64,000 nucleotides of DNA from Eledone cirrhosa (Eukaryota): the NCBI GenBank assembly GCA_964016885.1, contig OZ024745.1:14260001-14324000 (forward strand), given 5' to 3'. Below the pieces are notes generated by a model. The model saw only the letters and a list, made by a program, of their open reading frames with translations. It was not told the origin of the DNA and did no database searches. The position numbers and the translations under genes are program-made. Every line of letters begins with the position of its first letter. Position 1 is the first letter of the stretch. Shown piece by piece: positions 8,086 through 62,286 of this stretch.

Positions 8086-8945
8086 ACCTAATTTATTCCA
8101 GATATTGACAATTGACAAAAGTTTAGAAGAGATTATTTATATAGTACGTTTTCTGAATGTCATCTAATTAACATTAAAACACAGTTTCTCTATGAGGCAG
8201 ACTATAATTGGTATTAAGAATATAATCTGTTTCGAATGTATCCAAGTAACAGCTGTTGCAGTAATACGGCTATTTCAATAATAGAGTGATCAGTTGGATT
8301 TTAATCATGTTGAGGGCAGACAAAAAAATTAAAATATACAAATATATAAATAACTAGGAAATATGTCCAAACGAAATTAAAACATAAATGAATCAATATA
8401 TTTGTTTAGGGAAAATTTATTAGTTTGAAAAGCAAAAAAAAAAACAAAAACAAAAAAAGGCAAAAAAAAAAGCAAAAAAAAAGAAGAAAAAACAACGAGA
8501 GCAAATGAAATCTTTCTTCCCAAATATGGATGTTGTTTCACGAAAGAAAATATTTACTTTTCATCAGAGCTGCACTAAGTTTTATTTGTGCCGAGCAAAA
8601 GTAATCTAGTGAGATATTTTTAATGCAAATATTCGTAGCAATGAACTTTATTAAATATAAACGAAGTTGAAACTAAAAGAAAATTTATACAACATTAATT
8701 TTTTTTTGTTAAATTTAGTCAATATCACATTTGGATGTTATTTCTTTTAGTTAAACTTCTTTTTATGTTACGGCAATAGTAAAAGATCACATGTAGTAAA
8801 TTAATAATAATAGTGTCAGAGAATCTGGAAAATATCCATCGTTTCTGTCGGAATAATTTGGCGGGGGAAACGTTCAATAATTTCTATAAAAGAGTCTTTA
8901 TAAAATATTTATTGGTGATATCAGCTAACATTTTAGACTTGATCA

Positions 8946-11900
8946 CTATTGTATAGCTGTGGGTGTAGTAGTGGGTATAGTGGTGGCTGTAGTGGTGGTT
9001 GTAGTAGTGGGTATAGTGGTGGCTGTAGTGGTGGCTGTAGTGGTGGATATAGCTGTAGTGGTGGTTGTAGTAGTGGCTGTAGTGGTGGCTGTAGTGGTGG
9101 CTGTAGTGGTGGCTGTAGTGGTGGATATAGCTGTAGTGGTGGCTGTAGTGGTGGGTATAGTGGTGGCTGTAGTGGTGGATATAGCTGTGGTGGTGGTTGT
9201 AGTAGTGGCTGTAGTGGCGGTTGTAGTACTGGCTATAGTGGTGGCTGTAGTGGTGGCTGTAGTGGTGGCTGTAGTAGTGGCTGTAGTGGTTGCTGTAGTG
9301 GTTGCTGTAGTGGTGGCTGTAGTGGTGGCTGTAGTGGTGGCTGTAGTGGTTGCTGTAGTGGTGGCTGTAGTGGTGGATGTAGTGGTGGCTGTAGTGGTGG
9401 CTGTAGTAGTGGCTGTAGTGGTTGCTGTAGTGGTGGCTGTAGTGGTGGCTGTAGTGGTGGCTGTAGTGGTGGCTGTAGTGGTTGCTGTAGTGGTGGCTGC
9501 AGTGGTGGCTGTAGTGGTGGCTGTAGTGGTGGCTGTAGTAGTGGCTGTAGTGGTTGCTGTAGTGGTGGCTGTAGTGGTGGCTGTAGTGGTGGCTGTAGTG
9601 GTGGCTGTAGTGGTTGCTGTAGTGGTGGCTGTAGTGGTGGCTGTAGTGGTGGCTGTAGTGGTTGCTGTAGTGGTGGCTGTAGTAGTGGCTGTAGTAGTGG
9701 CTGTAGTAGTGGTTGTAGTAGTTGCTGTAGTGGTGGCTGTAGTGGTGGCTATAGTGGTGGCTGTAGTGGTGGCTGTAGTAGTGGCTGTAGTGGTGGCTGT
9801 AGTGGTGGCTGTAGTGGTGGCTGTAGTGGTGGCTGTAGTGGTGGCTGTAGTGGTGGCTGTAGTGGTGGCTGTAGTGGTGGCTGTAGTGGTGGCTGTAGTG
9901 GTGGCTGTAGTGGTGGCTGTAGTGGTGGCTGTAGTGGTGGCTGTAGTGATGGCTGTAATGGTGGCTGTAGTGGTGGCTGTAGTGGTGGCTGTAGTGGTGG
10001 CTGTAGTGGTGGCTGTAGTGGTGGCTGTAGTGGTGGCTGTAGTGGTGGCTGTAGTAGTGGCTGTAGTAGTGGCTGTAGTAGTGGCTGTAGTAGTGGCTGT
10101 AGTAGTTGCTGTAGTGGTGGCTGCAGTGGTGGCTGTAGTGGTGGCTGTAGTGGTGGCTGTAATGGTGGCTGTAGTGGTGGCTGTAGTGGTGGCTGTAGTG
10201 GTGGCTGTAGTGGTGGCTGTAGTGGTGGCTGTAGTGGTGGCTGTAGTGGTGGCTGTAGTGGTGGCTGTAGTGGTGGCTGTAGTGGTGGCTGTAGTGGTGG
10301 CTGTAGTAGTGGCTGTAGTGGTGGCTGTAGTGGTGGCTGTAGTGGTGGCTGTAGTGGTGGCTGTAGTGGTGGCTGTAGTGGTGGCTGTAGTGGTGGCTGT
10401 AGTAGTGGCTGTAGTGGTGGCTGTAGTAGTGGCTGTAGTGGTGGCTGTAGTAGTGGCTGTAGTGGTGGCTGTAGTAGTGGCTGTAGTAGTGGCTGTAGTG
10501 GTGGCTGTAGTGGTGGCTGTAGTGGTGGCTGTAGTGGTGGCTGTAGTGGTTGCTGTAGTGGTGGCTGTAATGGTGGCTGTAGTGGTGGCTGTAGTGGTGG
10601 CTGTAGTGGTGGCTGTAGTGGTGGCTGTAGTGGTGGCTGTAGTGGTGGCTGTAGTGGTGGCTGTAGTACTGGCTGTAGTGGTGGCTGTAGTGGTGGCTGT
10701 AGTGGTGGCTGTAGTGGTGGCTGTAATGGTGGCTGTAGTGGTGGCTGTAGTGGTGGCTGTAGTGGTGGCTGTAGTGGTGGCTGTAGTGGTTGCTGTAGTG
10801 GTTGCTGTAGTGGTGGCTGTAATGGTGGCTGTAGTGGTGGCTGTAGTGGTGGCTGTAGTGGTGGCTGTAGTGGTGGCTGTAGTGGTGGCTGTAATGGTGG
10901 CTGTAGTGGTGGCTGTAGTGGTGGCTGTAGTGGTGGCTGTAGTGGTGGCTGTAGTAGTGGCTGTAGTGGTGGCTGTAGTGGTGGCTGTAATGGTGGCTGT
11001 AGTGGTGGCTGTAGTGGTGGCTGTAGTGGTGGCTGTAGTGGTGGCTGTAGTGGTGGCTGTAGTGGTGGCTGTAGTGGTGGCTGTAGTGGTGGCTGTAGTA
11101 GTGGCTGTAGTAGTGGCTGTAGTGGTGGCTGTAGTAGTGGCTGTAGTGGTGGCTGTAGTGGTGGCTGTAGTGGTGGCTGTAGTAGTGGCTGTAGTAGTGG
11201 CTGTAGTGGTGGCTGTAGTGGTGGCTGTAGTGGTTGCTGTAGTGGTGGCTGTAATGGTGGCTGTAGTGGTGGCTGTAGTGGTGGCTGTAGTGGTGGCTGT
11301 AGTGGTGGCTGTAGTAGTGGCTGTAGTGGTGGCTGTAGTAGTGGCTGTAGTGGTGGCTGTAGTAGTGGCTGTAGTGGTGGCTGTAGTACTGGCTGTAGTG
11401 GTGGCTGTAGTGGTGGCTGTAGTGGTGGCCGTAGTGGTGGCTGTAGTGGTGGCTGTAGTAGTGGCTGTAGTAGTGGCTGTAGTGGTGGCTGTAGTAGTGG
11501 CTGTAGTGGTGGCTGTAGTGGTGGCTGTAGTGCTGGCTGTAGTGGTGGCTGTAGTGGTGGCTGTAGTGGTGGCTGTAGTGGTGGCTGTAGTGGTGGCTGT
11601 AGTAGTGGCTGTAGTAGTGGCTGTAGTGGTGGCTGTAGTACTGGCTGTAGTGGTGGCTGTAGTGGTGGCTGTAGTGGTGGCTGTAGTGGTGGCTGTAGTG
11701 GTGGCTGTAGTGGTGGCTGCAGTGGTGGCTGTAGTGGTGGCTGTAGTGGTGGCTGTAGTGGTGGCTGTAGTGGTGGCTGTAGTGGTGGCTGTAGTGGTGG
11801 CTGTAGTGGTGGCTGTAGTGGTGGCTGTAGTGGTGGCTGTAGTGGTTGCTGTAGTGGTGGCTGTAGTGGTGGCTGTAGTGGTGGCTGTAGTGGTGGCTGT

Positions 11901-14117
11901 AGTGGTTGCTGTAGTGGTGGCTGTAGTGGTGGCTGTAGTACTGGCTGTAGTGGTGGCTGTAGTGGTGGCTGTAGTGGTTGCTGTAGTGGTGGCTGTAGTG
12001 GTGGCTGTAGTGGTGGCTGTAGTGGTGGCTGTAGTGGTGGCTGTAGTGGTGGCTGTAGTGCTGGCTGTAGTACTGGCTGTAGTGGTGGCTGTAGTGTTGG
12101 CTGTAGTGGTGGCTGTAGTGGTGGCTGTAGTAGTGGCTGTAGTGGTGGCTGTAGTGGTGGCTGTAGTGGTTGCTGTAGTGGTGGCTGTAGTGGTGGCTGT
12201 AGTGGTGGCTGTAGTGGTGGCTGTAGTGGTTGCTGTAGTGGTGGCTGTAGTGGTGGCTGTAGTACTGGCTGTAGTGGTGGCTGTAGTGGTGGCTGTAGTG
12301 GTTGCTGTAGTGGTGGCTGTAGTGGTGGCTGTAGTGGTGGCTGTAGTACTGGCTGTAGTGGTGGCTGTAGTGGTGGCTGTAGTGGTGGCTGTAGTGGTGG
12401 CTGTATTGGTTGCTGTAGTGGTGGCTGTAGTGGTTGCTGTAATGGTGGCTGTAGTGGTGGCTGTAGTGGTGGCTGTATTGGTTGCTGTAGTGGTTGCTGT
12501 AGTGGTGGCTGTAATGGTGGCTGTAGTGGTGGCTGTAGTGGTGGCTGTATTGGTTGCTGTAGTGGTGGCTGTAGTGGTTGCTGTAGTGGTGGCTGTAGTG
12601 GTGGCTGTAGTACTGGCTGTAGTGGTGGCTGTAGTGGTGGCTGTAGTGGTGGCTGTAGTAGTGGCTGTAGTAGTGGCTGTAGTGGTGGCTGTAGTGGTGG
12701 CTGTAGTGGTTGCTGTAGTGGTGGCTGTAGTGGTGGCTGTAGTGGTGGCTGTAGTGGTGGCTGTAGTGGTGGCTGTAGTGGTGGCTGTAGTGGTGGGTGT
12801 AGTATTGGCTGTAGTAGTGGCTGTAGTGGTGGCTGTAGTGGTGGCTGTAGTGGTGGCTGTAGTATTGGCTGTAGTGGTGGCTGTAGTGGTGGCTGTAGTG
12901 GTGGCTGTAGTGGTGGCTGTAGTGGTGGCTGTAGTGGTGGCTGTAGTGGTGGGTGTAGTGGTTGCTGTAGTGGTGGCTGTAGTGGTGGGTGTAGTATTGG
13001 CTGTAGTAGTGGCTGTAGTGGTGGCTGTAGTGGTGGCTGTAGTGGTGGCTGTAGTATTGGCTGTAGTGGTGGCTGTAGTGGTGGCTGTAGTGGTGGCTGT
13101 AGTGGTGGCTGTAGTGGTGGCTGTAGTGGTGGCTGTAGTGGTGGCTGTAGTGGTGGCTGTAGTGGTGGCTGTAGTGGTGGGTGTAGTATTGGCTGTAGTA
13201 GTGGCTGTAGTGGTGGCTGTAGTGGTGGCTGTAGTGGTGGCTGTAGTATTGGCTGTAGTGGTGGCTGTAGTGGTGGCTGTAGTGGTGGCTGTAGTGGTGG
13301 CTGTAGTGGTGGCTGTAGTGGTGGCTGTAGTGGTGGCTGTAGTGGTGGGTGTAGTATTGGCTGTAGTAGTGGCTGTAGTGGTGGCTGTAGTGGTGGCTGT
13401 AGTGGTGGCTGTAGTATTGGCTGTAGTGGTGGCTGTAGTGGTGGCTGTAGTGGTGGCTGTAGTGGTGGCTGTAGTGGTGGCTGTAGTGGTGGCTGTAGTG
13501 GTGGGTGTAGTGGTTGCTGTAGTGGTGGCTGTAGTGGTGGCTGTAGTAGTGGCTGTAGTGGTGGCTGTAGTGGTGGCTGTAGTGGTGGCTGTAGTATTGG
13601 CTGTAGTGGTGGCTGTAGTGGTGGCTGTAGTGGTGGCTGTAGTGGTGGCTGTAGTGGTGGCTGTAGTGGTGGCTGTAGTGGTGGGTGTAGTGGTTGCTGT
13701 AGTGGTGGCTGTAGTGGTGGCTGTAGTAGTGGCTGTAGTGGTGGCTGTAGTGGTGGCTGTAGTGGTGGCTGTAGTATTGGCTGTAGTGGTGGCTGTAGTG
13801 GTGGCTGTAGTGGTGGCTGTAGTGGTGGCTGTAGTGGTGGCTGTAGTGGTGGCTGTAGTAGTGGCTGTAGTGGTGGCTGTAGTAGTGGCTGTAGTGGTGG
13901 GTGTAGTGGTTGCTGTAGTGGTGGCTGTAGTGGTGGCTGTAGTAGTGGCTGTAGTGGTGGCTGTAGTAGTGGCTGTAGTAGTGGCTGTAGTAGTGGCTGT
14001 AGTGGTGGCTGTAGTAGTGGCTGTAGTGGTGGCTGTAGTGGTGGCTGTAGTAGATGTCGTTCTTTTCATCACTGTTATTGTTGCCTCCAATGAAAGTACT
14101 GAGTTAACAATAATAGG
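8946..14117 (-). CDS. Probable terminal exon of a mucin-like Thr/Ala-rich protein, (TTTA)n, ~1720 aa
   Basis: Open frame across ~425 12-bp units. The commonest variants (ACC/ACT, GCC/GCA) are synonymous in this frame. In-frame acceptor TTTCATTGTAG| at 14128-14118, TAG stop at 8948-8946, AATAAA at 8913-8908. Confidence 0.65.
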   Translation of the reverse strand, partial: PIIVNSVLSLEATITVMKRTTSTTATTTATTTATTTATTTATTTATTTATTTATTTATTTATTTATTTATTTPTTTATTTATTTATTTATTTATTTATTTATTTATTTATTTANTTATTTATTTATTTATTTATTTATTTATTTPTTTATTTATTTATTTATTTATTTATTTANTTATTTATTTATTTATTTATTTATTTATTTPTTTATTTATTTATTTATTTATTTATTTANTTATTTATTTATTTATTTANTTPTTTATTTATTTATTTATTTATTTATTTATTTANTTATTTATTTATTTATTTANTTPTTTATTTATTTATTTATTTATTTATTTATTTATTTATTTANTTATTTATTTATTTATTTANTTPTTTATTTATTTPTTTATTTATTTATTTATTTATTTATTTANTTATTTATTTATTTATTTANTTPTTTATTTATTTATTTATTTATTTATTTATTTATTTATTTATTTATTTATTTATTTATTTASTTATTTATTTATTTATTTATNTATTTATTTATITATTTATTTATNTATTTATTTATITATTTATTTATNTATTTATTTATTTATTTASTTATTTATTTATTTATTTATTTATTTASTTATTTATTTATTTATTTATTTATTTATTTATTTATTTATTTATTTATTTATTTANTTATTTASTTASTTATTTATTTATTTATTTATTTATTTATTTATTTATTTASTTATTTATTTATTTATTTATTTATTTATTTATTTATTTATTTATTTATTTATTTATTTATTTATTTATTTATTAATTTATTTATTTATTTATTTATTTASTTATTTATTTATTTATTTATTTATTTATTTATTTASTTATTTATTTATTTATTTATTTATTTATTTATTTATTTATTTATTTASTTATTTATTTATTTATTTATTTATTTATTTATTTATTTATTTATITATTTATTTATTTATTTATTTATTTATTTATTTATTTATTTATTTATTTATTTATTTATTTATTTATTTATTTATTTATTTATTTATITATTTATTTATTTATTTATTTATTTATTTATITATTTATTTATTTATTTATTTATITATTTATTTATTTATTTATTTATTTATTTATITATTTATTTATTTATTTASTTATTTATTTATTTATTTATTTATTTATTTATITATTTATTTATTTATTTATTTATTTATTTATTTATTTATTTATTTATTTATTTATTTATTTATTTATTTATTTATTTATTTATTTATTTATTTATTTATTTATTTATTTATTTATTTATTTATTTATTTATTTATITATTTATTTATTAATTTATTTATTTATTTATTTATTTATTTATTTATTTATTTATTTATTTATTTATITAITTATTTATTTATTTATTTATTTATTTATTTATTTATTTATTTATTTATTTATTTATTTATTTATTIATTTATTTATTTTTTTATTTATTTATTTATTTATTTATTTATTTATTTATTTATTTATTTATTTATTTATTTATTTATTTATTAATTTATTTATTTATTTATTTATTTATTTATTTATTTATTTSTTTATTTATTTATTTATTTATTTATTTATTTATTTATTTATTTATTIASTTTATTATTTTTTTAISTTTATTIPTTTATTTAISTTTATTTATTTATTTATTTTTTTAISTTTATTTATTIPTTTTTTTATTIPTTTPTAIQ
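8950..14052. repeat. 12-bp tandem repeat (GTAGTGGTGGCT)n, ~5.1 kb
   Basis: Directly visible in the sequence. Confidence 0.99.
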
Positions 14118-14228
14118 CTACAATGAAATGATGAATTAATTTAAAATTCATCGTAGTTTAGATGAGAGAGTTGTTTATACGAGACGGCTCTGTTGTATTA
14201 TATTTCAGTATAATATGTAGGAGGTTTA

Positions 14229-26883: not shown

Positions 26884-26926
<43 letters not shown>

Positions 26927-26974
26927 TACCTTAGATTTATCAATATATATATATATCTACGTATGAAGTGCTTG

Positions 26975-27030
<56 letters not shown>

Positions 27031-27180
27031 CAAGCACTTCATACGTAGATATATATATATATATATATATTGATAAATCTAAGGTAAATTTAATGTAATA
27101 CTGTTCTATATTTTTGAGACGAGGAATTATTTACATTATATATATTGGACGGATAGGTGTCCTCATCTTGTTTCGTTGTT

Positions 27181-27226
27181 AACACAACGTTTCGGCTGAC
27201 GTACCCTCCAGGCTTCATCAGGTGTC
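27181..27226 (-). ncRNA. Minimal type-I hammerhead ribozyme
   Basis: GACAC-CUGAUGA-AG(C)CUG..CAGCC-GAAA-CG-UU-GUGUU. Stem I is GACAC/GUGUU and stem III is the palindrome AACGUU. Confidence 0.8.
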
Positions 27227-27252
27227 CTAGTGATGTTATTAACGTTTGTTCA

Positions 27253-27311
27253 GGTCACTACCTAGAATTGAACTCGGAATCTTGAGGTTAGTAGCCCGCT
27301 TTTCAACCACG
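27253..27311 (-). mobile_element. tRNA-derived Pol III head (SINE-like) just upstream of the HHR
   Basis: GTGGTTGAAAAGCGGGCTACTAAC...GAGTTCAATTCTAGG contains a partial A-box and a B-box. Confidence 0.65.
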
Positions 27312-27403
27312 TTTTTGTCTTTTTTCTCCTTTTTTTTCTCTTGAATTTGTAGGGCTTATAAACTGATATTTTTCTATGCCTCCTCAATACCGGTTCCCAT
27401 ATA

Positions 27404-28054
27404 CTACTCATATCTGCTTAGGAGGTTATTGTGTCCTAGCATATGTGCTGCCTCTTTTAGTCTTCGTATTTTCCAGTCGTGTTCTCTGTCTATTATTTTA
27501 ACTTCATCCCACAGGGGAAGGTGATCTCCGTTTTTCCATACATGATCAGCTACACCCGATTTATCGATCTCTCCTCGTGTCACAGCTTTACAATGTTCTT
27601 CTACCCTTATTTTGAGGGGGCGGCCTGTTTCGCCTTTGTATAACCTACCACAGCTGTATGGGATGGAGTACCCGTAGTCTTTGGTCATATTCTCTTCTAT
27701 TGGTGGTTCAACTCGAAGGAGATATTTGCGAAGTGTTGTATTACTCTTGAATACTGTCCTGATGTCATATGGACCGCATACCTTTTGTATCTTTTCCGAG
27801 AGGTTTTTTTACATAGGGTAGACAGACTGTGGTCAATTTATGGGTTTCATCCTCTCTCCCCTTCCTAAGTAGAGTGGATAGTATGTTTTCGGATAGGTGT
27901 TGCTTAACAAATTGTTACTTAGCTTTATCATTTCTTCGTGATGTGTATCAGGATCGCTACTTATATTCTTTGCTCGATGTTTTAGGCACTGAACCATCCC
28001 TCTCTTTACACTAAAGGAAATAAATATTTCTCTTTGTTGAATATAAGTCACCAA
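27404..28054 (-). pseudogene. Decayed Penelope/Poseidon-type PLE 3' ORF (thumb/linker + GIY-YIG endonuclease)
   Basis: YSIPYSCGRLYKGETGRPLKIRVEEH...SGVADHVW...HLPLWDEVKII...RRLKEA, with upstream VCLPYVKNLSEKIQKV. Confidence 0.85.
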
Positions 28055-28575
28055 TTTGGTTGAGGTATCTTGTCACCAATTTGGTGAAAGATATGTTGTC
28101 ACCAGATTTAGCGGAGAAGTATATTTCAGAAGTTGTTGTATTGTTGCCACGAGGAACCAGGTTTGGTAGAAAGATATGATAGCGTATATCGATAACGACT
28201 TTTAGCTTGGTTTTACATTATTTATTAACAGAGGTTGAGCTGGCATGCCAAGAGAAATTAAACAAACGAATTAACATTCCAGAAAGACACGGGCTACAGG
28301 CTGAGAGAAGCGTTGCCAGGCCGTGGTTAAATTGTTGTGTTACATATTGGCTAGTGATTTCACGGCGCAAGAAAAATGGTTGTTTACCTTAGCACGGTCG
28401 AAGCTGCGAGTCATCTAGCCTGGAAGTGGTGGCGTCCTCAAATCTTTGCGGGCTATTTCTCCCTCAGAACGCGTAGGGATACATCCTCTTCTACTGGCGC
28501 TGATTGGATGAGCTGAGCCAAATCACGCACAGAGAATGTATGTGAGCCCGCGGAATGTAGGTCACTACAACACTG

Positions 28576-29374: not shown

Positions 29375-32008
29375 CTAACAGTGCTGCGATCGAATGTGGC
29401 TTTTTAGCCCAGCCAATGATCTAAAATGTCTTGCACAGAGTCGGCAACCAAAACATTTACTGGGAATAGTCGGCTGTGGTTGGAGTTCGTGTACTTTTGC
29501 ATGTCGCTTGAGTCCTCCTGCTGATTTACATTCTCTACCACATGTTTGGCAAGCATGATGAGTAGCATCTCCAACAGCAGCCTGGTAGTCAACCACTGGT
29601 CTTACTTTATGACTGCGAAGATGACTTTCGAGTCCAGCTTTGCTTAGGCAGAGTCTCGCACAGACGCTGCATGTCAGAAACATAGGAGGACCCTCGCCGT
29701 CTGGAAGTGCAACAGCAATACCCTTCCTCACGTCCCGCTTTACTTTCTCGTGTGCGATTCGAGATGCCTCAAAGGCAACTTTTCCCTCATATACAGTCTT
29801 TCTCCATTTATTACGATCAGCAGCAATATTTTCCCATGTATCAGCAGAGATGTTAGCGTCTTTCAGAGAGGCCTTCAAGGAATCCTTATACCTCTTTTTT
29901 GGTTTATGTGGCGGTCGTTTTCCTTTAACCAACTCTCCATAGAAGAGTTGTTTTGGTATTCTAGAATCCTTCATCCTGGCAAGGTGACCACTCCAACGGA
30001 GTCGCTGCTTAAGCACAAGAGCTTCTATACTGTCACACATAGAGCTTTCCAAAATCTCGACATCACTGATGTGGTCCCTCCAGTGAACGCCATGTATCCG
30101 TCTGAGACACATCTGATGGAAACGCTCCAATTGCTTAAGGTGGCGTCGATATGTGACCCAAGTCTCGCAGGCATAAAGAAGACAAGAGAGTACACATGCC
30201 CTGTACACCTTTACCTTTGTCCTCCTGCATATGTCTCGCCGACCCCAGAGTCGCCTTTCTAGCTTTCCGAAAGCATCACTTGCTTTCCTAATCCTAAGTG
30301 AGATTTCACTGTCAAGGTTGCCGTATCGATTGACAGTGCTTCCCAGGTAGACAAACTGATCAACCACTCCAAGTCGTTTGCCATACACATAGATGTTTGG
30401 TTCAGTGTACTGCCTACCAGGTGCAGGTTGGTACATGACGACGGTTTTCTTGAGACTGACAGTCAAACCCAGGGCAGTGCAAGCGTCAGAAAATACATTC
30501 AAAATGTGCTGCATATCACTCTCTGTGTGCGCTACAAGATCGCAATCATCTGCATACAAGAGGTCTCTTATGACTGATGTAAATACTTTTGTCTTCGCAG
30601 CAAAGCGCCTGATGTTAAATATGCTGCCTGAGGTTCGATATCGGATGTAAACACCATGCTCGCAATTCCTGAATGCAATACAGAAAACCATTGCAAAGTA
30701 TATGGCAAACAGGGTCGGTGCTGGAATATCCCCCTGTTTCACTCCATTTTTTACTGAGATAGGCTCCGACATGTTACCTCCGACATTAACCCAAGCCTTC
30801 ATGTCGTCATGGAAAGACCTAACTAAAGCAAGGAACTTATCAGGGCAACCAAGTTTCTGGAGAACCTTCCATAATGCATCTCTGTTGACAGTATCGAAAG
30901 CCTTTGTCAGATCGACAAAAACCTGATACAGATCCAAGCCCTGTTCAATGCACTTCTCCTGGAGCTGTCTAGCTGAGAAGATCATATCAGTAGTGCCGCG
31001 TCCAACACGAAAACCAGATTGACTTTCAGGAAGGACACAATCCGCAATGTGTGTCAGCAGACGGTCCAGAAGCACCCTACATAAAACTTTCCCCACGACA
31101 GAAAGCAATGATATACCTCTGTAGTTCCCACAATCATTCCTGTTACCCTTTCCCTTGTACAAGACCACCATTACTGCATCTCTCCAGTCCTCAGGCACGG
31201 ATTCATTAGCCCATATCCTTCCAAACAGAGAGTGAAGATGTTGCAGGAGTCTCTCACCACCATATTGTAGGAGCTCAGCATGTATGCCATCCATACCTGG
31301 AGATCTTCCACTGTTCAGCTTCGAAATAGCCACTGCAACCTCCACAAGTGTCGGAGGTTCTGCGAGAGCTACTTTCACGGGACTTTCCGGAATGAGATTG
31401 AGGAAATCTTCACTGACGACAGACGGCTGATTCAAAAGATCATCAAAGTGCTCTCGCCACCTTCGTAGAATTCCCTGTGAGTCACGAAGAAGTTCTTTGC
31501 CATCCCTGCTGCGAATCGGTGTCACCAGAGAAGAAGACGGTCCATAAACCTCACGCAAGAGACTGTACAACAGCTTTGTGTTATTGCAATCAGACGCAGT
31601 TTGTATCTCACCAGCCTTCTCACTCCACCACTGATCCTTCATCTGAGAAAGACTCCGCCTAACACGTGATTTTACATCCCTGAGCTCCTCATGCAACGTA
31701 TTCCTCTCCTGCGGTTTTGCCGTCAAGTAGCGTGACAGAGCGCGCCTCTTATCAGCCAACAAGTCATCTATATGCACATCTTTCTCATTAAACCAGTCCT
31801 GATGTTTTCTCTGCACCAATCCCAGAACACGTCTGCCTACATCATAAACCGACTTTTTAAGGGTCGGCCAATCCTCACCAAGATCTGCAGCCTGCATCTC
31901 TTCTTCCAATGTCCTCTTCACATTTTTATCCTTAAGACGAGCAGCATTCAATCTTTTGGGCAGGGTAACACCAGGAGCCCGGATTTTACGTTTGGTGATT
32001 AGATTCAC
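29375..32008 (-). CDS. RTE LINE reverse transcriptase with three C-terminal C2H2 zinc fingers
   Basis: NYRGISLLS, QSGFR, FVDLTKAFD, GVKQG, LLYADD motifs and CxxC..H...H x3. Confidence 0.95.
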   Translation of the reverse strand: MNLITKRKIRAPGVTLPKRLNAARLKDKNVKRTLEEEMQAADLGEDWPTLKKSVYDVGRRVLGLVQRKHQDWFNEKDVHIDDLLADKRRALSRYLTAKPQERNTLHEELRDVKSRVRRSLSQMKDQWWSEKAGEIQTASDCNNTKLLYSLLREVYGPSSSLVTPIRSRDGKELLRDSQGILRRWREHFDDLLNQPSVVSEDFLNLIPESPVKVALAEPPTLVEVAVAISKLNSGRSPGMDGIHAELLQYGGERLLQHLHSLFGRIWANESVPEDWRDAVMVVLYKGKGNRNDCGNYRGISLLSVVGKVLCRVLLDRLLTHIADCVLPESQSGFRVGRGTTDMIFSARQLQEKCIEQGLDLYQVFVDLTKAFDTVNRDALWKVLQKLGCPDKFLALVRSFHDDMKAWVNVGGNMSEPISVKNGVKQGDIPAPTLFAIYFAMVFCIAFRNCEHGVYIRYRTSGSIFNIRRFAAKTKVFTSVIRDLLYADDCDLVAHTESDMQHILNVFSDACTALGLTVSLKKTVVMYQPAPGRQYTEPNIYVYGKRLGVVDQFVYLGSTVNRYGNLDSEISLRIRKASDAFGKLERRLWGRRDICRRTKVKVYRACVLSCLLYACETWVTYRRHLKQLERFHQMCLRRIHGVHWRDHISDVEILESSMCDSIEALVLKQRLRWSGHLARMKDSRIPKQLFYGELVKGKRPPHKPKKRYKDSLKASLKDANISADTWENIAADRNKWRKTVYEGKVAFEASRIAHEKVKRDVRKGIAVALPDGEGPPMFLTCSVCARLCLSKAGLESHLRSHKVRPVVDYQAAVGDATHHACQTCGRECKSAGGLKRHAKVHELQPQPTIPSKCFGCRLCARHFRSLAGLKSHIRSQHC

Positions 32009-32886
32009 TCAGCTCCACGAAGAACACGAACACACTGCACATCCTGTCTGTCACGCATCCTGACTAGGACGTAGTCCAAAAGATGCCATTCCTTAGATGC
32101 AGGATGCATCCATGTGGTCTTGAATTTGTTCTTTTGTTGGAACATGGTGTTGGTAACACACAGATCCAGCTCCTCACACATCTGCAGCAAGAGCATACCA
32201 TTGCTGTTACACTTTCCCACCCCATGCCTTCCGATTACATTCCATGTGTTAAAATCCCTACCCACTCTAGCATTAAAGTCACCAAGCACGATGACTTTGT
32301 CTGCCTGAGGGATATTTCTTAAAACACCTTTCAAGGCATGGTAAAAGGACAGTTTTTCTTCATCGACAGAATTCATAGTTGGAGCATACACACTCACCAG
32401 GGTAGCATATCTTCCCTTGTCCAGCGGAACTCTCATGGACATAAGACGCTCACTAATCCCCACTGGGAATTCTTCTAATTTATTCACCAGTACAGTCTTA
32501 ACAGCAAATCCTACCCCAGCCTCTCTTCTGGTTCCTTCATCTCTTCCTTTCCAGAAGAATGTATATTCTCCACAAAATTCCGTAAGATGACCATCTCCAG
32601 CTAACCTCGTCTCAGACAAAGCCACGATGTCAAGATCGTAACGTCGAAGCTCCTTCGCAACAAGAGCGGTCCTTCGTTCAGGACGCTCCAAAGAATCCCT
32701 GTCAAGCAGCGTCCGTACGTTCCAGCAGCCAAGACTAAATGCCCTGTTTGGCTCTATTACAATGGCACGATGACGGGCGGGCCCAGGTTGTGATAACTTG
32801 GGGCCCCTGCCCTTATTGCCAATGATCTTTTTTGTTCCAGAACCCAAATTGGCAATTATCTCGTTTACATTGTTCTGGAACATCAT
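32005..32886 (-). CDS. RTE LINE apurinic-type endonuclease, separated from the RT by a frameshifting deletion
   Basis: WNVRTL, ALSETR, SVYAPT, GDFNARVG, LDYVL motifs. The terminal (S/T)DH motif is missing. Confidence 0.9.
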   Translation of the reverse strand: MMFQNNVNEIIANLGSGTKKIIGNKGRGPKLSQPGPARHRAIVIEPNRAFSLGCWNVRTLLDRDSLERPERRTALVAKELRRYDLDIVALSETRLAGDGHLTEFCGEYTFFWKGRDEGTRREAGVGFAVKTVLVNKLEEFPVGISERLMSMRVPLDKGRYATLVSVYAPTMNSVDEEKLSFYHALKGVLRNIPQADKVIVLGDFNARVGRDFNTWNVIGRHGVGKCNSNGMLLLQMCEELDLCVTNTMFQQKNKFKTTWMHPASKEWHLLDYVLVRMRDRQDVQCVRVLRGAE

Positions 32887-32894
32887 TGAATTGG

Positions 32895-32934
<40 letters not shown>

Positions 32935-32939
32935 TAATA

Positions 32940-32974
<35 letters not shown>

Positions 32975-34478
32975 ACACTATTAATAATTATTAATGGACT
33001 CGTGCAATGCCTGTGCGTGACGAATATTTTTAAAGTGAGGAAAGACTGTGCACTGAACCAATCCCACTCTCTGAGCGACAGTAGCTATAACCCGAAAAGA
33101 AGAAAAGATCAACATCATCGGTAACTACTGAGCCGCAGGTTTTATATCGGAGTTAACCCAGTTTCCTGAGATGCCTTCTCCTAGAAGAATACCCTGACAT
33201 GGGCTAGGGGTTCTTCACTCCCAGTGGTTTAACTGCGCGATCGGGCATCCAGCCCGATTATTTCTATGTCCCCGCGCAAAAAAAAAAAAAAAAAAAAAAA
33301 AAAATTACTTATTGACACTTATACGTACGACATACACACACACGCATACATATGCGTGCACACAGCAACACTCACACACACAACAAACACACACACACGC
33401 TACTCTACTCACTTACACGCACACACACACACATATATATATATATTACCGTCATTACTGATACAAGATTACCAGATTATGTCAACTGTTGACTTTCAAG
33501 AGTTTGTATAGTTGAAGCCGATCGTATTACAGTCCAGTATTACTATAATTGCTTTACAGCATAGAGTTATGGCTCTCCACGGAGTCAACAAAAGAGAGTA
33601 CCAGTGATGCGCTGGCCAGTCGCTGGATCCGTGCCAAAAGCAGAAAAATTATTATTAAAGTTGTTCTTAAGGTCGCTGGTGATGGTGATGGCGACGGCGG
33701 TGGCGGTGGTGGTGGTGGTGGCAGTTGATGTTGTTGTTCTGTTGTGTGTGTGTGTGTGTGTTTTGTTATTTTGAGTTTTTTTTTTCCTTTCTTTTTTTTC
33801 TTTTTCCTTTTTTTTCCTTTTTTTTTTTTTCTCCTTTTTTTTTTTCCCCTTCCCTTTTCTTTTTTCTTTTCCCTTCCTTTTTTTATGTTTTGATGCCGCT
33901 GTTGTTGTTGTTGTTGTAATTGTTGTAAATGTTCATTTCAGTTCATTCTGAAGCTGTTGTTGCTGTAAACATTAGTGCCGGTGTTGTTGTTGTTGTAGAT
34001 GTTGGGGTTGAAATCTGGTTGTTTGACTGAGTGATGTATATACACACATATACATACACACACATATATATATATATACATTCATCAGAGAGTAGAGAGT
34101 TTGACAACAGGTCGATGACTTTAGTCTCGATAGGGTATGGTATGGTAATGACATGTGATGGTGGGGAGAGAGTGTAGACGTTATTGTGGTGGTGTGGACA
34201 GTGAGATGTATCTAGTTCATTTGACCGTTTTCTTCTCTTAGCAAAATTTGAATTCTAGCCATGTTATATTGAGATGTAAGTAAATGTAAAATATAAATAA
34301 GGATTGCTCTGCTAAAATATACTAAAATATTTGTGTAACTTCCACAAACTTCTGTCGTGACATTCCCGAGTCCAGTAACCAACAAATTGTTGTATTTTGA
34401 TGTTTCAGAATACAAAAATTAATTAAAAACTTACCCCACGAAGAGACAGCGTGTGTTGTCCTATCTATAAGCTCCCTC

Positions 34479-43760: not shown

Positions 43761-43852
43761 ACGAAGGAAATGTGGTAAGGAACCAGGTGAACCATAACGC
43801 ACCAAAGTACTCAATACTTAGAGTAGTAGAGTGGGTAATAGGAACGAGTAGG

Positions 43853-43947
43853 ACCCCGACGGCTGAGCTCAAGCCGTTTCGACGGCTAATTCTGGACTAA
43901 ATGAAAATTTTTATCCTGGTATTTGAATAGCCGAGCTTCTCAGGGGT
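43853..43947 (-). ncRNA. Type-I hammerhead ribozyme in 3' pLTR
   Basis: Same fold as 48403-48498. Confidence 0.75.
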
Positions 43948-44830
43948 TAATTCCACATATGGTAAAAGTGATTATCACAAGGATTGGTCAAAAGTTTGTT
44001 GTTGAGACATACTAATTCTATCATGGCAATTTGTGGAGGGAAGGGGTAGCTGAACCTGCCAGTAGAAGAAAGAGGGAGAGGGGGTGGAAGAAACCCAGTC
44101 GTGCGTTGATAGTGCCAACTACGGCTGGGCAGGAGGTCAAAGAAGATACTAGGGGGGAGGGGAGGAAGTCGAAACAATAAGTAAAACAATATGGGGTAAA
44201 TATATAGAAAAATACCGGGAGTGTTAAAAAACAATTAAGTGTAAAGAAAAAAACAATTTCTGGTTACTATAACCTAAGGACAGCTATCAAGTCTCTCACT
44301 GGTACTGCTAGACTAAAGAAAGGTTTACTAGGTGGGACGGAATTATAATGAAACCCTTTTAAGAGGTATAAGTAAACAACCGAATATATCTTACGGTGAC
44401 GGGTCAACAAGTGGGGAGCCAAAATACTAAAGAAACTACCACGAAATAATAAATCAGAGTCCCGAGACCAATACGAAATAAAGGTTTCTATCCCAGGCAC
44501 AAGGCCAGCAACCACCCAGTGCAAAAAAAACTAAAAAAACTAATACGAAATAATAATTCAGAATCCCGAAAAAGAATACTAATACTATCTTTAAGGGTGC
44601 CGCCACGCTACAAAAATTCTAGTGCAAACTACATAAATGCTCGTACGAAGTAAAATTTGATACGGATAATTAATTCAGAAGAAAGAGGACTGGGGTGGAA
44701 GGACTAGGGAGGGATGGGGGGAAGAAGGAAATATAGAGGAAGTGATAAAAAGATATAGAAGAAGATATTAGGTCTACCTTTGCAAGCAGGGGTTACCTGA
44801 TACAAAATCGGCTAGTGGGGTGTTATAGCC

Positions 44831-46986
44831 CTAGTCTACCCCCGGGTCATTATGGGGTTTGAGGGCGAGGTATGTCCTACGCAATCGGTGTTTACATGCA
44901 GTTACAAGTTCATCTTTCTTGTTTAGGAGTTGGTCCGTCGAGAACAGCATTTGTAAAGTTTCCTCCGAGCATAAATTGCACGGACGGCGTCCTCTCGTAT
45001 AAGAGTTGGCTCTGGACAGTAAGCTCCAAGTGAGATCATAGGTAATATTGTTATCCTTGAAGTCCCATATGTGGCTCGAAAGTGTAGTGGCGTGACGCCG
45101 GGCCGGGTTTCGGAAGGTATGTCTGTGTTGGTATAGCCGGGTCTTGAAGTCACATGCGGTTAATCCTATATAGGCTTTGTTGGATGTGTCCGTCCTCACG
45201 TTGCACTGGTAGATCACATTACAATCTCTGCATCTGTTGTTGAGGGGGAAAATGGATCCATCAGGACAGTTGCACCTCCGGGTCGGCTCTCCACTGCTAT
45301 TTCGGTTATTTCTTCTATGGGGGTTGAGTTTTTTGTTGTTAGAGGAGACGATGTTTTGTGCAAAGTTTGGTGTGGTGCTGTAGGAGAGTTTGATGGTATT
45401 TTTGTTAATTATGTTGTGGTAGCGGTGTTGTAGTGGGAAGTGTTTTTCAATGAGCCTAAAGAAGATTTTCCCGATAGGAGTTGTCACCTCGGCGTTGTGG
45501 GGAGGATTGAACCATGTTACGTTGCGTGAGCGGCGGTGTCGCCTGCTGGTTCCGCTAATGGAAGCTGGACAGTAGGATATTTCCTCCCGGAAACCACTCC
45601 GCTTGAGGGCCTGGTTGTAGTAAGGCGCATGTTCCTCGAATATCTGCTCATTAGCTGACAAACGAGATATGCGGAGGGAGATATTTTTAACCAGGTTATT
45701 GGTGATGTTCCTAGGATGGTTTGACCGGCGGTGGATGTAGTGCAGGTTGTCGTTAGGTTTCCTGTATGGGTAGTACAGATCATTATCGAGGTCAAGGGTA
45801 ACATCCAGGAAGTTAACTCGGGTCAGGTACGTTTGTAGGGTTATTTTAAATCCCCAGTCGCGGAAGAAGCTGATTAATTGTTTACGGACCCGATCTGTAC
45901 TACTGGGGTTGTACCCTTTAAGAGTAAGGAGCCCGTCATCACGGTACAATCCACCGCCGAATGCAGGAAACAAATCGGTGAGTTTGGCTATTAGGAATAA
46001 TCCTATAAGATCTGTGACCTCTGCCGAATCCGTCGCGCCCATGCTGACGTTGAAGGGTGAGTCGGGAGCTCTCTTTATCCATTTGGAGTTGTCGAAGAGT
46101 AAGACTGTCTTCCTGGCGTGGAGGATGATGTTTCTTTCCTGGTCGGTGATGGGCACAAGTGTTTCGGCGAAGTCCAAGGCAGCCGTAAGTAGCGGTAAGG
46201 TGATTGAAGCATAATAACTCTCTATGTCAAACTGGATGAATTTAGTGTCTCGTTTTTCCTCCATATTGCTGAACCATGAGATCATTTCCTGGGTATTGAC
46301 CCATAGGCTAAGTCTGGCGTGTTGCTTAACTTTTGGTATCACGCGGTCTAGGATTTTTTTGCTGATTCTCCCTATGTCGGACTTCGTTGGGTTTATAAGC
46401 CTGATAGAAGGTTTGCGGTCGAAATCGGATTTGTGGTCCTTCAGTGTGAAGTAGGGTGTCCGTGGGTCTAGGGGTTCTGTGCGGTCGGCGACCCCGAGGC
46501 TGGAGGTAATTTGTTGTCCATCTCGATTTATGTCCTCGATGCATGAGTGGTTAGCCTTTTTATAGGTCGAGTTTAGGCTGCTCCTGATCAGTGTGTGGTA
46601 TCTGTCGGGGTTGACAAAGTAGAGGTTACCAGTTTTATCCGAGTGCACCATGATGTCGTTGGTGTTATCATACTCTGTTAAGTTGCTACGGAGATTTTGT
46701 AGGAATCGGTTGTGTCTGGGTTTGAATTTAATGTTCTTGACCAGTTGGAAAAGATCATTCTCGAAGGGTGAGAGTATAGGGTTCGGAGGGGGAGATTTGT
46801 AGGTAATAAATCCGAATCTCTCCTTGGTACCGAAGTCCTGATTGTCGCAATATCTGTCGTAGAAAAAAGTCCTCCATCTAAGTCTTTTCGCAAAAGATCG
46901 ATTTTTTGCGTGAGCATCTGAAGGTAAAGTTTTTTCGGTGGGACTGGGATGTTCTTGGTAGAGAAGTGGATGTTGTGTTTTCGCAT
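44831..46986 (-). CDS. PLE polyprotein (RT + GIY-YIG). True start probably ATG 46986, with a 1-nt frameshift near 46898
   Basis: MRKHNIHFSTKNIPVP in one frame, then FAKRLRW, SDKTGN, FDIESYY, GLYRDDGL, VNFLDV, CNC, VIY..YIG, CNLC..E, LN..E..CKH in the 786-aa frame. Confidence 0.9.
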
Positions 46987-47171
46987 GGTGCGGGTGAAAG
47001 AACTTGAGCTTAGCGGAAAAGTCTGGATACGGAGTGGTATGGTCGGAAAGTGCACTACTACGGGAATAGGAGCTAGATAACGAAGGAAATGTGGTAAGGA
47101 ACCAGGTGGACCATAACGCACCAAAGTACTCAATACTTAGGGTAGTAGAGTGGGTAATAGGAACGAGTAGG

Positions 47172-47267
47172 ACTCCGACGGCTGAGCTCAAGCCGTTTCG
47201 ACGGCTAATTCTGGACTAAATGAAAATTTTTATCCTGGTATTTGAATAGCCGAGCTTCTCAGGGGGT
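47172..47267 (-). ncRNA. Type-I hammerhead ribozyme in 5' pLTR
   Basis: Same fold as 48403-48498, with one stem I mismatch. Confidence 0.7.
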
Positions 47268-48402
47268 AATTCCATATATGGTAAAAGTGATTGTCACAAG
47301 GATTATAATATCTTCTATATCTTTTTATCACTTCCTCTATATTTCCTTCTTACCCCATCCCTCCCTAGTCCTTCCACCCCAGTCCTCTTTCTTTGTCGTC
47401 GTCAATTTTACTTTCTCGCCCACCCGAGGTAGCCCCTCGGTCCCTTGTAGCCTCAGTACCACCACCCCCTTCCCCTAATCTATGATATATTTGGCCAACT
47501 CCACTTTTTATAGCAGTTGTGTTAGACCCCGGATACTAGAATTCTTATCCGATGGCCGAACCTTTTCCGTGCTTTCTATATTTCGTAGTGGTATCTTTGC
47601 TTTAATTTCTCGTATATCAGTATTTATTTTTTTTTATTATTTTTTTTTGGGGGGGGGGGGGGGGGATTCTGAATTAATTTTCCGTATCAAATTTTACATA
47701 GACTTCGTACGAGCATTTATGTAGTTTGCACTAGAATTTTTGTAGCGTGGCGGCACCCTTAGAGATAGTATTAGTATTCTTTTTCGGGATTCTGAATTAT
47801 TATTTCGTATTAGTTTTTTTTTTTTTTTGCACTGGGCGGTTGCTGGCCTTGTGCCTGGGATAGAAACCTTTATTTCGTACTGGTCTCGGGACTCTGATTT
47901 ATTATTTCGTAGTAGTTTCTTTAGTATTTTGGCCCCCCACTTGTTGACCCGTCACCGTAAGATATATTCGGTTGTTTACTTATACCTCTTAAAAGGGTCT
48001 CATTATAATTCCGTCCCACCTAGTAAACCTTTCTTTAGTCTAGCAGTACCAGTGAGAGACTTGATAGCTGTCCTTAGGTTATAGTAACCAGAAATTGTTT
48101 TTTTCTTTACACTTAATTGTTTTTTAACACTCCCGGTATTTTTCTATATATTTACCCCATATTGTTTTACTTATTGTTTCGACTTGCTCCCCCTCCCCCT
48201 AGTATCTTCTTTGACCTCCTGCCCAGCCGTAGTTGGCACTATCAACGCACGACTGGGTTTCTTCCACCCCCTCTCCCTCTTTCTTCTACTGGCAGGTTCA
48301 GCTACCCCTTCCCTCCACAAATTGCCATGATAGAATTATTATGTCTCAACAACAAACTTTTGACCAATCCTTGTGATAATCACTTTTACCATATATGGAA
48401 TT

Positions 48403-48498
48403 ACCCCCTGAGAAGCTCGGCTATTCAAATACCAGGATAAAAATTTTCATTTAGTCCAGAATTAGCCGTCGAAACGGCTTGAGCTCAGCCGTCGGGGT
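48403..48498 (+). ncRNA. Type-I hammerhead ribozyme in inverted pLTR
   Basis: ACCCC-CUGAGAA-G..CGGCUA[loop]UAGCCG.C-GAAA-CGGCU ugagcuc AGCC-GUC-GGGGU. Predicted cleavage after 48493. Confidence 0.78.
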
Positions 48499-48508
48499 CC
48501 TACTCGTT

Positions 48509-48543
<35 letters not shown>

Positions 48544-48548
<5 letters not shown>

Positions 48549-49127
48549 AACGAGTAGGACCCCGACGGCTGAGCTCAAGCCGTTTCGACGGCTAATTCTG
48601 GACTAAATGAAAATTTTTATCCTGGTATTTGAATATTTAGAAATGTAAGTTATCGCCGTATTTTGACTAAAGAAATTAAAGACATTATTTAGCCTGATAG
48701 TGGGGTTAAAACCCTCTAAGAAATGGAAAAAAAGATGAGTATTGACGTACATAGGAGTCGAACCCACATCTTTGGTTATCCGGACCACTGTGCTACCATC
48801 TTACTTGACATTACAGTCGCTAAGTTTATAGCTTCTAATTTGAATGGAAAAAGACGGGTGATGTGTTGGTGTAAATGGTAGCACAGTAGTACGGATAACT
48901 AAAGATGTGGGTTCGACTCCCATGTACGTCAATACTCATCTTTTTCCATTTCTTAGAGGGTTTTAACCCCACTATCAGGCTAAATAATGTCTTTAATTTC
49001 TTTAGTCAAAATACGGCGATAACTTACATTTCTAAATATTCAAATACCAGGATAAACATTTTCATTTAGTCCAGAATTAGCCGTCGAAACGGCTTGAGCT
49101 CAGCCGTCGGGGTCCTACTCGTTCCTA
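48544..49127. mobile_element. ~580-bp fold-back element: tRNA-like head + body + PLE pLTR 3' part, in inverted duplicate
   Basis: Arms 48544-48804 and 48871-49127 are near-perfect reverse complements, with (TA)n on both sides. Confidence 0.85.
48860..48931 (+). tRNA. tRNA-like sequence (pseudo-tRNA / SINE head)
   Basis: 72-nt cloverleaf: D-arm GTGT/GCAC, T-arm GTGGG-TTCGACT-CCCAT, wobble-rich acceptor stem, degenerate anticodon arm. Confidence 0.6.
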
Positions 49128-49516
49128 TATATATATATATATATATAGTCAAAATACGGCGATAGCTTACATTTCTAATAATTTCAAATCAACTCGCTGT
49201 TTCGAAAATATTCTTACTATATATATATACAGTTCAAGAATAACCAATCTTAAAGAGAGAGATGGAGATAGGCGAGGAGAGGAGAAGAGAGATTGGTGAA
49301 TTAGTTAGAAGCCAAAGTGTAAAGGCATGTGCTCAATGTGCAATATGCAGTGGAAGGCAGCTAGGTGGCTGGGTTCATGCAGAGGTTAGGTGCACAGAGC
49401 TGGAAATATTAATTAGTTAAGACCACACATTTCACAAGGAAGACATTACTAAAAGATTGTCAACATAGTTTTAGTTTGATGTAAGGAATGTAGAGAATAT
49501 TAATAATATTAATAAT

Positions 49517-62089: not shown

Positions 62090-62286
62090 TATAGAAAAAT
62101 GTATGACCCCGACGGCAGAGCTCAAGCCATTTCGACGGCTATTTCTGGACTCCAGAAATAGCCGTCGAAACGGCTTGAGCTCTGCCGTCGGGGTCATACA
62201 TTTTCCTATTACCCACTCTATTACCCTAAGTATTGAGTACTCTGGTGCGTTATGGTCCATCTGGTTCCTTACCACACCTCCTTCGT

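Follow-up and report, generated by a model that had tools for sequence, protein, structure and literature searches.

A tRNA-derived head in the hammerhead pseudo-LTR of a truncated Penelope/Poseidon-type element from Eledone cirrhosa

Hammerhead ribozymes are a usual feature of the pseudo-LTRs (pLTRs) of Penelope-like elements (PLEs). As set out in the available text of Cervera and de la Peña (PMC4209133), the minimal hammerheads of PLEs are marked by an added base between positions 9 and 10.1, a G10.1-C11.1 pair and palindromic positions 15.2-16.2, and the monomeric form is inactive in vitro. In Anolis PAc, the ORF begins in the hammerhead, reverse transcription starts at +111-118 and the tail comprises 30-40 nt (PMC11167929). 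A short RNA, +20 to +172, is sufficient for this element, the template must reach +172, and the DNA that is nicked is AT-rich. Insertion does not depend on hammerhead cleavage, which in PAc requires protein (PMC11167929). The available text of Craig et al. (PMC8557442) reports inverted pLTRs, and gives a CxC + His motif as a mark of the PLE endonuclease.

Hammerheads and small-RNA promoters are also combined with other elements. Both the Sm-alpha and the Sj-alpha elements of Schistosoma are SINE-like and non-coding, are often tandem, and carry a tRNA-related Pol III promoter followed by a canonical hammerhead, so that cleavage parts the promoter from the downstream RNA, a loss described for single units as well (available text of PMC6765202 and PMC2770079). 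For PLEs, in turn, promoters have been reported to lie within the pLTR and upstream of the following ORF (PMC6765202, available text). The non-autonomous LTR elements TRIMp3 Helenus, Ajax and Cassandra, which have a PBS, a PPT and TSDs, hold a small-RNA-derived Pol III promoter within the terminal repeat, and SINE insertion has been proposed as the source of such promoters (Kojima 2024, PMC10886601); the word 'Penelope' is absent from the available main text of that paper. Finally, animal non-LTR retrozymes are tandem units with at least two type I hammerheads related to those of pLTRs, and they give circular RNA (PMC7229834; bioRxiv 10.64898/2026.07.22.740005). A pLTR origin has been proposed for them in the preprint, the available text of which has 0 mentions of tRNA, Pol III or promoter, while the available text of PMC7229834 mentions tRNA for ligases and background.

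The locus described here lies in a 64 kb stretch of DNA from Eledone cirrhosa, which we call the window. Like the elements of PMC4209133 and PMC11167929, it has the marks of a minimal hammerhead and an ORF start that overlaps it, and like PAc it has a terminus approximately 90-150 nt into the ORF, a tail and an AT-rich target. Unlike those elements, it has a tRNA-derived head between the ORF end and the hammerhead, of which the available text of those two papers makes no mention, and its candidate ATG occupies positions 6-8 of the core, not the start of stem II. It shares with Sm-alpha and Sj-alpha the order of a tRNA-related segment and then a hammerhead, but here a coding PLE is attached, the hammerhead is minimal, and neither a tandem nor a solo unit is shown. 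It likewise resembles Helenus, Ajax and Cassandra, although the repeat in question is a PLE pseudo-LTR, and it resembles the non-LTR retrozymes in hammerhead type and unit size, but with one hammerhead, an attached ORF and a tRNA head. No tRNA-derived head in a PLE pLTR was found in the available literature; the unit may be contained in the library of an octopus repeat annotation (PMC13282606), in Dfam or Repbase, or in the octopus SINE paper of 1994. What we did not find in print is thus the head embedded in a Penelope/Poseidon pLTR, the hammerhead pLTR itself being usual.

Coding remnant, terminus and hammerhead

The features of the locus are collected in Table 1. The initial annotation had placed an ORF remnant, a tRNA-like segment, a hammerhead and a terminus in this order on the minus strand, and both the order and the coordinates hold. 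Other copies were taken from contigs of four runs at 80% likeness, one run each from the coded organisms A (X1), B (X3), C (X9) and E, with 182, 6481, 11356 and 9536 aligned contigs, respectively. Some part of the stretch is contained in 20 of the 24 runs listed, and half of it in 0 of these. Joints at the level of single records refer to the matches listed, 32 of 27,768 records.

Table 1. Features of the pseudo-LTR locus, in window positions
Feature	Positions	Strand	Basis
5'-truncated, broken C-terminal Penelope/Poseidon-type ORF remnant (end of RT region, linker, endonuclease)	27373..28015	-	tblastn with P0029, P0049, P0004; alignment
Short A-rich 3' region, standing where related copies carry the 5' part of the head and the A-box	27312..27372	-	contig junctions
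5'-truncated tRNA-derived head: D-loop GG 27308-27307, B-box 27275-27265, T-arm 27277-27261, without A-box	27253..27311	-	
Head-hammerhead linker; (AAT)n-like in organisms B, C and E, longer in C and E	27227..27252	-	contigs
Minimal type I hammerhead of PLE type; putative cut 27186/27185	27181..27226	-	descriptor, fold, PMC4209133 features
PLE ORF-start remnant; ATG at 27218 inside the hammerhead core, 41 open codons	27096..27218	-	P0029 match
Terminal 22 nt ('tail'), likely ending at the reverse-transcription start site	27070..27091	-	PMC11167929; ends of other copies
(TA)n target tract, palindrome at its centre	26944..27069	.	
Exact inverted copy of the terminal 22 nt, beyond the (TA)n palindrome	26922..26943	+	

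The ORF remnant corresponds to residues 584-802 of P0029, a protein of 806 aa (tblastn; 58% over 207 aa, E 1e-65). One frame, 28015-27413, covers residues 584-787, and another carries the match on to 27373. The damage consists of a stop and frameshifts near 27850-27807 and 27413, and other copies have an 11-nt indel at 27412. Of 156 candidates in a homologue search, 22 fell below E 0.001. P0029, P0049 and P0004 all bear RVT_1, and these proteins of 582-806 aa are 58-60% identical to the remnant at the C-terminus; the RT region itself is missing from the truncated copy, which ends at 28015. By eye, the RT of P0029 is like the PoseidonFr and PENELOPE rows of the supplementary alignment of Craig et al. 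By the layout of its relatives, the remnant appears to come from a PLE-type ORF, with an RT followed by a C-terminal endonuclease. Its CCHH motif has a Tyr in place of the first Cys, while a CxC and two His are visible by eye in the aligned relatives; no CxC linker occurs between RT and EN in P0029. Pfam assigned no family to a 134-aa piece of the remnant, NCBIfam gave no match, and the AlphaFold model was poor (pLDDT 48.9). The remnant is the end of a PLE ORF, and the earlier GIY-YIG label is a putative one, assigned by homology, position and motifs seen by eye.

At the opposite end, the terminus abuts (TA)n at 27070, as had been claimed. Between hammerhead and terminus, 27158-27096 matches residues 5-24 of P0029 with 11/21 identical, a score reached by 0 of 5000 shuffles in a comparison chosen post hoc; tblastn gave E 0.14 within 1.7 kb. 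Most contigs of C and E have a 1-base deletion at 27174, which breaks the frame of the ATG at 27218, and this codon is therefore a candidate start only. The terminus of the window copy lies 149 nt past the core ATG, and other copies end approximately 93 and 122 nt past it (near 27126 and 27096-27099). Since the stretch after the hammerhead encodes an ORF N-terminus and ends in a 22-nt tail that is inverted at (TA)n, it reads as an ordinary pseudo-LTR, comparable to that of Anolis Poseidon. The pLTR joins the element's 3' end to the beginning of its ORF, holds a hammerhead and a tail, and lies at an AT-rich target, a layout that matches that of PAc. Antisense hammerhead text adjoins related ORFs in 4/54 fetched proteins, which fits the inverted pLTRs in the available text of Craig et al.

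The hammerhead was initially annotated as intact and minimal. It is minimal: the descriptor for minimal type I hammerheads has one site in both strands of the window (27221 to 27186), and 0 matches in 100 Markov-resampled windows. The core occupies 27221-27215 and is followed by an additional A (27214), stem II (27213-27209/27198-27194) and GAAA (27193-27190); a palindromic ACGU replaces stem III, and stem I pairs 5/5. All the PLE-type marks are thus present: G10.1-C11.1, the base added between 9 and 10.1, the palindrome at 15.2-16.2, and a stem I whose 5 bp fall within the 4-5 bp of the type. It is not intact, as C27212 stands opposite C27195 and the C·C mismatch interrupts stem II. A base able to pair is present at 27212 in at least two contigs of organism A (X1, loose end at 27236). 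In the window copy, the stem II pairs have a predicted probability of 0.01-0.02, and the hammerhead-shaped fold lies 6.8 kcal/mol above the optimum, a fold that has the core paired to loop II. Its fold energy was no better than that of shuffles (z -0.50). Rfam gave no hammerhead on the window among 150 of 182 matches listed, mostly microsatellite-driven miRNA models; a local Rfam scan gave two chance matches and did not report 27226-27181; and the hammerhead pattern had 0 matches in metagenome and viral contigs. According to these fold predictions, the window copy would misfold. By analogy with Anolis Poseidon, the hammerhead would cleave only as a dimer or with the help of protein. On the minus strand, the catalytic core at 27220-27215 is complementary to 27201-27196, a segment made up of loop II with the 3' strand of stem II, and the common variant at 27200 perfects this pairing, so that a built-in off fold is possible.

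The tRNA-derived head and its copies

The segment at 27311-27253 had been described as tRNA-like with A- and B-boxes. The B-box stands, and sits in a T-arm with 4/5 pairs. The distance from the D-loop GG to TTC is 36 nt, which is the usual tRNA spacing. The A-box has been lost from the window copy: against the common A-box and B-box consensus, the homologous 11-mer reaches at most 5/9. A 7/9 A-box-like word does occur at 27306, but its end lies only 20 nt ahead of the B-box. The combination of A-box and B-box expected of a SINE2 is seen in organisms B and E, while the window copy has the B-box only. Sites with a B-box in a T-arm number five in the window, approximately 0.004 per 100 nt and strand. 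Neither ARAGORN, also with relaxed scores, nor Rfam called the head, and its fold energy was no better than that of shuffles (z 1.07). In B, C and E the head is followed by (AAT)n, which resembles the tail of a SINE.

The repeat is a family with many variants and copies, not a one-off. A variant of the head at 27260 is found in 7, 81, 119 and 120 contigs of A, B, C and E, and the variant of the hammerhead loop at 27200 in 20, 112, 127 and at least 128. Summed contig depth over the ORF, the head and the hammerhead is similar in magnitude in three runs, whereas in X1 it rises towards the terminus; it cannot rank the parts.

Among the matches listed, head and hammerhead lie on one contig in X1 record 3 (27194-27316) and X3 record 17 (27131-27299). 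In addition, at least 36 loose ends of X3 lead from the head side, by way of a short (AAT)n, to stem I and the core, and at least six X1 contigs span the linker with a 3-nt insertion at 27235. In the contig alignments, loose ends within or beside the linker fall at 27244, 27249 and 27226. In organisms C and E, (AAT)n follows the head (at least 112 and 117 contigs) and a different segment precedes the hammerhead (at least 147 and 124 contigs); the matches listed there include the head-hammerhead joint in one contig of C (X9) and none of E. This segment ahead of stem I in C and E (loose ends at 27226) contains a second B-box-like word, which does not occur in the lineage of the window copy.

On the other side of the head, X1 records 4 and 5 of organism A bridge the head and the ORF end with the same A-rich junction as in the window, from which they differ by 19 and 15 letters and are therefore separate copies. 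Variants at 27304 and 27311 occur within the A-box-less junction in at least 7-8 X1 contigs. Reversed loose ends at 27297-27299 lead instead to a 9/9 A-box and a tRNA-like 5' start in B (at least 33 and 54 contigs) and E (at least 86); the linker behind this head differs between B and E. Joints of head and ORF in B and C are single contigs among those listed (27299-27814 in X3; 27293-27714 in X9, with a side of 29 letters). X1 record 1 departs from the alignment at 27241 with 114 letters left, and so has a hammerhead without the window's head directly upstream.

The initial annotation would have been undone had the tRNA segment been absent from other copies. It is present in them, joined to the hammerhead in A and B. 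Because of these joints, and because the head is joined to the ORF end in A, the head is not a one-off SINE insertion.

The 48.9 kb unit and other repeats of the window

A second case at 48.9 kb had been taken as unrelated in sequence and as an independent instance of the same architecture. The first part is borne out (best blastn E 4.8). The second is not: the hammerhead-like motif behind the head at 48.9 kb is reduced to its 3' half, and because the 5' half of the core is missing the unit is no second instance. This head is called as a tRNA by Rfam (38.3 bits; gathering 29) and by ARAGORN. It precedes 49037-49128, the last 92 nt of the end repeat of another PLE (the 44.8-47.3 kb element), without the 5' half of the hammerhead-like core. 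Both cases nevertheless have a tRNA-like head joined to a PLE terminus.

The unit occurs as back-to-back copies in (TA)n, at 48544-48830 on the minus strand and 48859-49128 on the plus strand, each with a tRNA-like head, a body of approximately 105 nt and the 92-nt PLE end, and is a candidate SINE with a PLE-derived tail. The other PLE (44831-47330, minus strand) has an open frame of 794 codons that looks Hydra-like by eye; the label 'Neptune' was considered for the element at 44.8-47.2 kb and rejected, as its RT resembles Hydra-clade rows. Its ends recur at 43762-43985, 48366-48513, 1-178 and 62101-62285. By eye, its end repeat contains a hammerhead-like motif whose core is unusual in that G8 is not in register; its stem II is very long, and stem III has a full 6 bp.

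Several other repeats were observed. Directly upstream of the truncated PLE, 28020-28575 (minus strand) holds an LTR-like stretch and then four short near-repeats that resemble a primer-binding site. A near-intact LINE lies at 29375-33084 (minus strand), with an AP endonuclease, an RT and C-terminal C2H2 fingers, and with one stop near 32006. A tandem repeat of the 12-nt type extends over approximately 5.2 kb (8884-14139) with several frames open; its minus strand is Thr/Ala-rich and mucin-like, and it may be a gene or a satellite. Another abundant repeat with a B-box-like word has at least eight copies (5812, 18480, 20847, 25407, 49630, 52762, 55108 and 63569) and is unrelated to the head at 27311-27253 apart from that word.

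Origin and possible roles of the head

The reading that we prefer, and in which we place about as much belief as doubt, is that the locus is the pLTR end of a dead, 5'-truncated Penelope/Poseidon copy of a many-copy family, in which the head was probably captured as a SINE and is likely a passenger copied by the RT of the element. Capture from a SINE is the most likely source of the head because of its (AAT)n tail and of Kojima's proposal for LTR elements. An early master copy would have received the tRNA-derived head at its 3' end, just ahead of the hammerhead, and the reverse transcriptase of the element would have replicated the head along with the pLTR ever since. If the steps known from Anolis Poseidon apply, a tandem transcript running from the pLTR into the ORF would bind the element's protein, the endonuclease would nick AT-rich DNA, and reverse transcription of the uncleaved RNA would begin approximately 90-150 nt into the ORF. 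It would then proceed back through hammerhead, head and ORF before falling off, in this copy at 28015. Against this reading stand the scarcity of head-hammerhead joints in C and E among the matches listed, and X1 record 1. The 9/9 A-box in B and E, together with a B-box signature at a comparable position in P0062, a more distant relative, fits selection for a promoter better than a passenger.

These last observations lead to a reading that we consider doubtful though worth stating, in which the head is a selected, working Pol III promoter of the pLTR and the Penelope counterpart of Cassandra or Helenus. Where copies stand in tandem, transcription from the head would start just upstream of the hammerhead, and a short uncapped RNA running into the next ORF start would be reverse-transcribed by the element's protein. 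The A-box of B and E is complete despite differing linkers, the head sits where PLE promoters are reported, and LTR elements offer a precedent for a small-RNA promoter (available text of PMC6765202 and PMC10886601). On the other hand, the A-box-less subfamily to which the window copy belongs has still multiplied (at least 7-8 contigs in A). No T4 terminator lies between head and terminus, but its absence is expected from composition (P 0.43-0.53). Pol III RNA, moreover, would be a poor mRNA for an ORF of 800 aa. P0062, from a related family, has its B-box signature in the antisense frame 57 codons from an ORF landmark, with a post hoc chance of 0.0007-0.0008 per frame; it is, however, one of five antisense relatives (8 matches), and two relatives that are long enough lack the signature in that frame. 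A wider set of B-box signatures also matched one unrelated protein of 5189 aa among 62. P0062 and the antisense frame of the head did not align in BLASTP, two antisense-frame protein searches gave no candidate, protein-based locus searches gave 122 and 59 pattern matches of which 0 were confirmed, and blastn against plasmids gave no match.

The initial annotation had gone further, proposing that the pLTR could be transcribed and move by itself, in the way of a retrozyme-like SINE. A free-standing unit of head, hammerhead and ORF start would then be transcribed by Pol III and mobilised by the PLE protein in the manner of Sm-alpha, and the window copy would still be joined to a PLE end or would have homed into one. 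The Schistosoma elements and the pLTR origin proposed for animal retrozymes (available text of PMC2770079, PMC6765202 and bioRxiv 10.64898/2026.07.22.740005) lend this idea some plausibility, as does the short RNA that PAc needs (PMC11167929). The 5' neighbour of the head, furthermore, is unseen for the bulk of the copies in B, C and E, where joints to the ORF are single contigs, a circumstance that favours a free-standing unit and weakens the passenger reading. Nevertheless, the window copy belongs to a subfamily that has no A-box and has still multiplied, its 3' half is an ORF start attached to ORF DNA, and the window contains a single hammerhead of the family and no tandem repeat, in place of the tandem non-coding units with two or more hammerheads that define non-LTR retrozymes. 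We regard solo mobility as unlikely, because monomeric minimal hammerheads are inactive and circles need two (PMC4209133, available text), because the predicted cut would separate a promoter side of 126 nt from the 116-nt piece with the element's end, and because, by analogy with PAc, where the template exceeds the RT start, part of the template would be missing from a solo copy that ends at +93 to +149. On the 5' side of the head, loose ends are short and resemble one another (agreement 0.73-0.75, median 19-34 letters), whereas those at true termini are long and mixed (agreement 0.46-0.47, median 172-255); this hints weakly that the head's 5' side is internal to a longer repeat. Most improbable of all is a chance SINE insertion into one PLE copy. 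Heads of tRNA type are common, as the five sites in the window illustrate, and X1 record 1 has a hammerhead without this head directly upstream, but identical joints recur in divergent contigs of two organisms, which largely refutes such an event, and neither a target-site duplication nor a SINE body was found around the head in the window.

The components of this arrangement are already known singly: hammerheads at PLE ends, SINEs of Schistosoma that combine a Pol III promoter with a hammerhead, and small-RNA promoters in LTRs. Repeat annotation could split such heads off and miscount them as a SINE family of their own. With the head as a passenger, the result is a modest one of curation. If the head is a promoter, PLEs would have their first counterpart of Cassandra and Helenus, and a living intermediate that connects coding PLEs with Sm-alpha-like elements of SINE plus hammerhead. 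One assembled genome would be enough to test promoter use, because the family comprises subfamilies with and without an A-box and two types of linker. A head fixed in the pLTR of a coding PLE would connect these known pieces, and would offer a concrete route to PLE-dependent SINEs and retrozymes.
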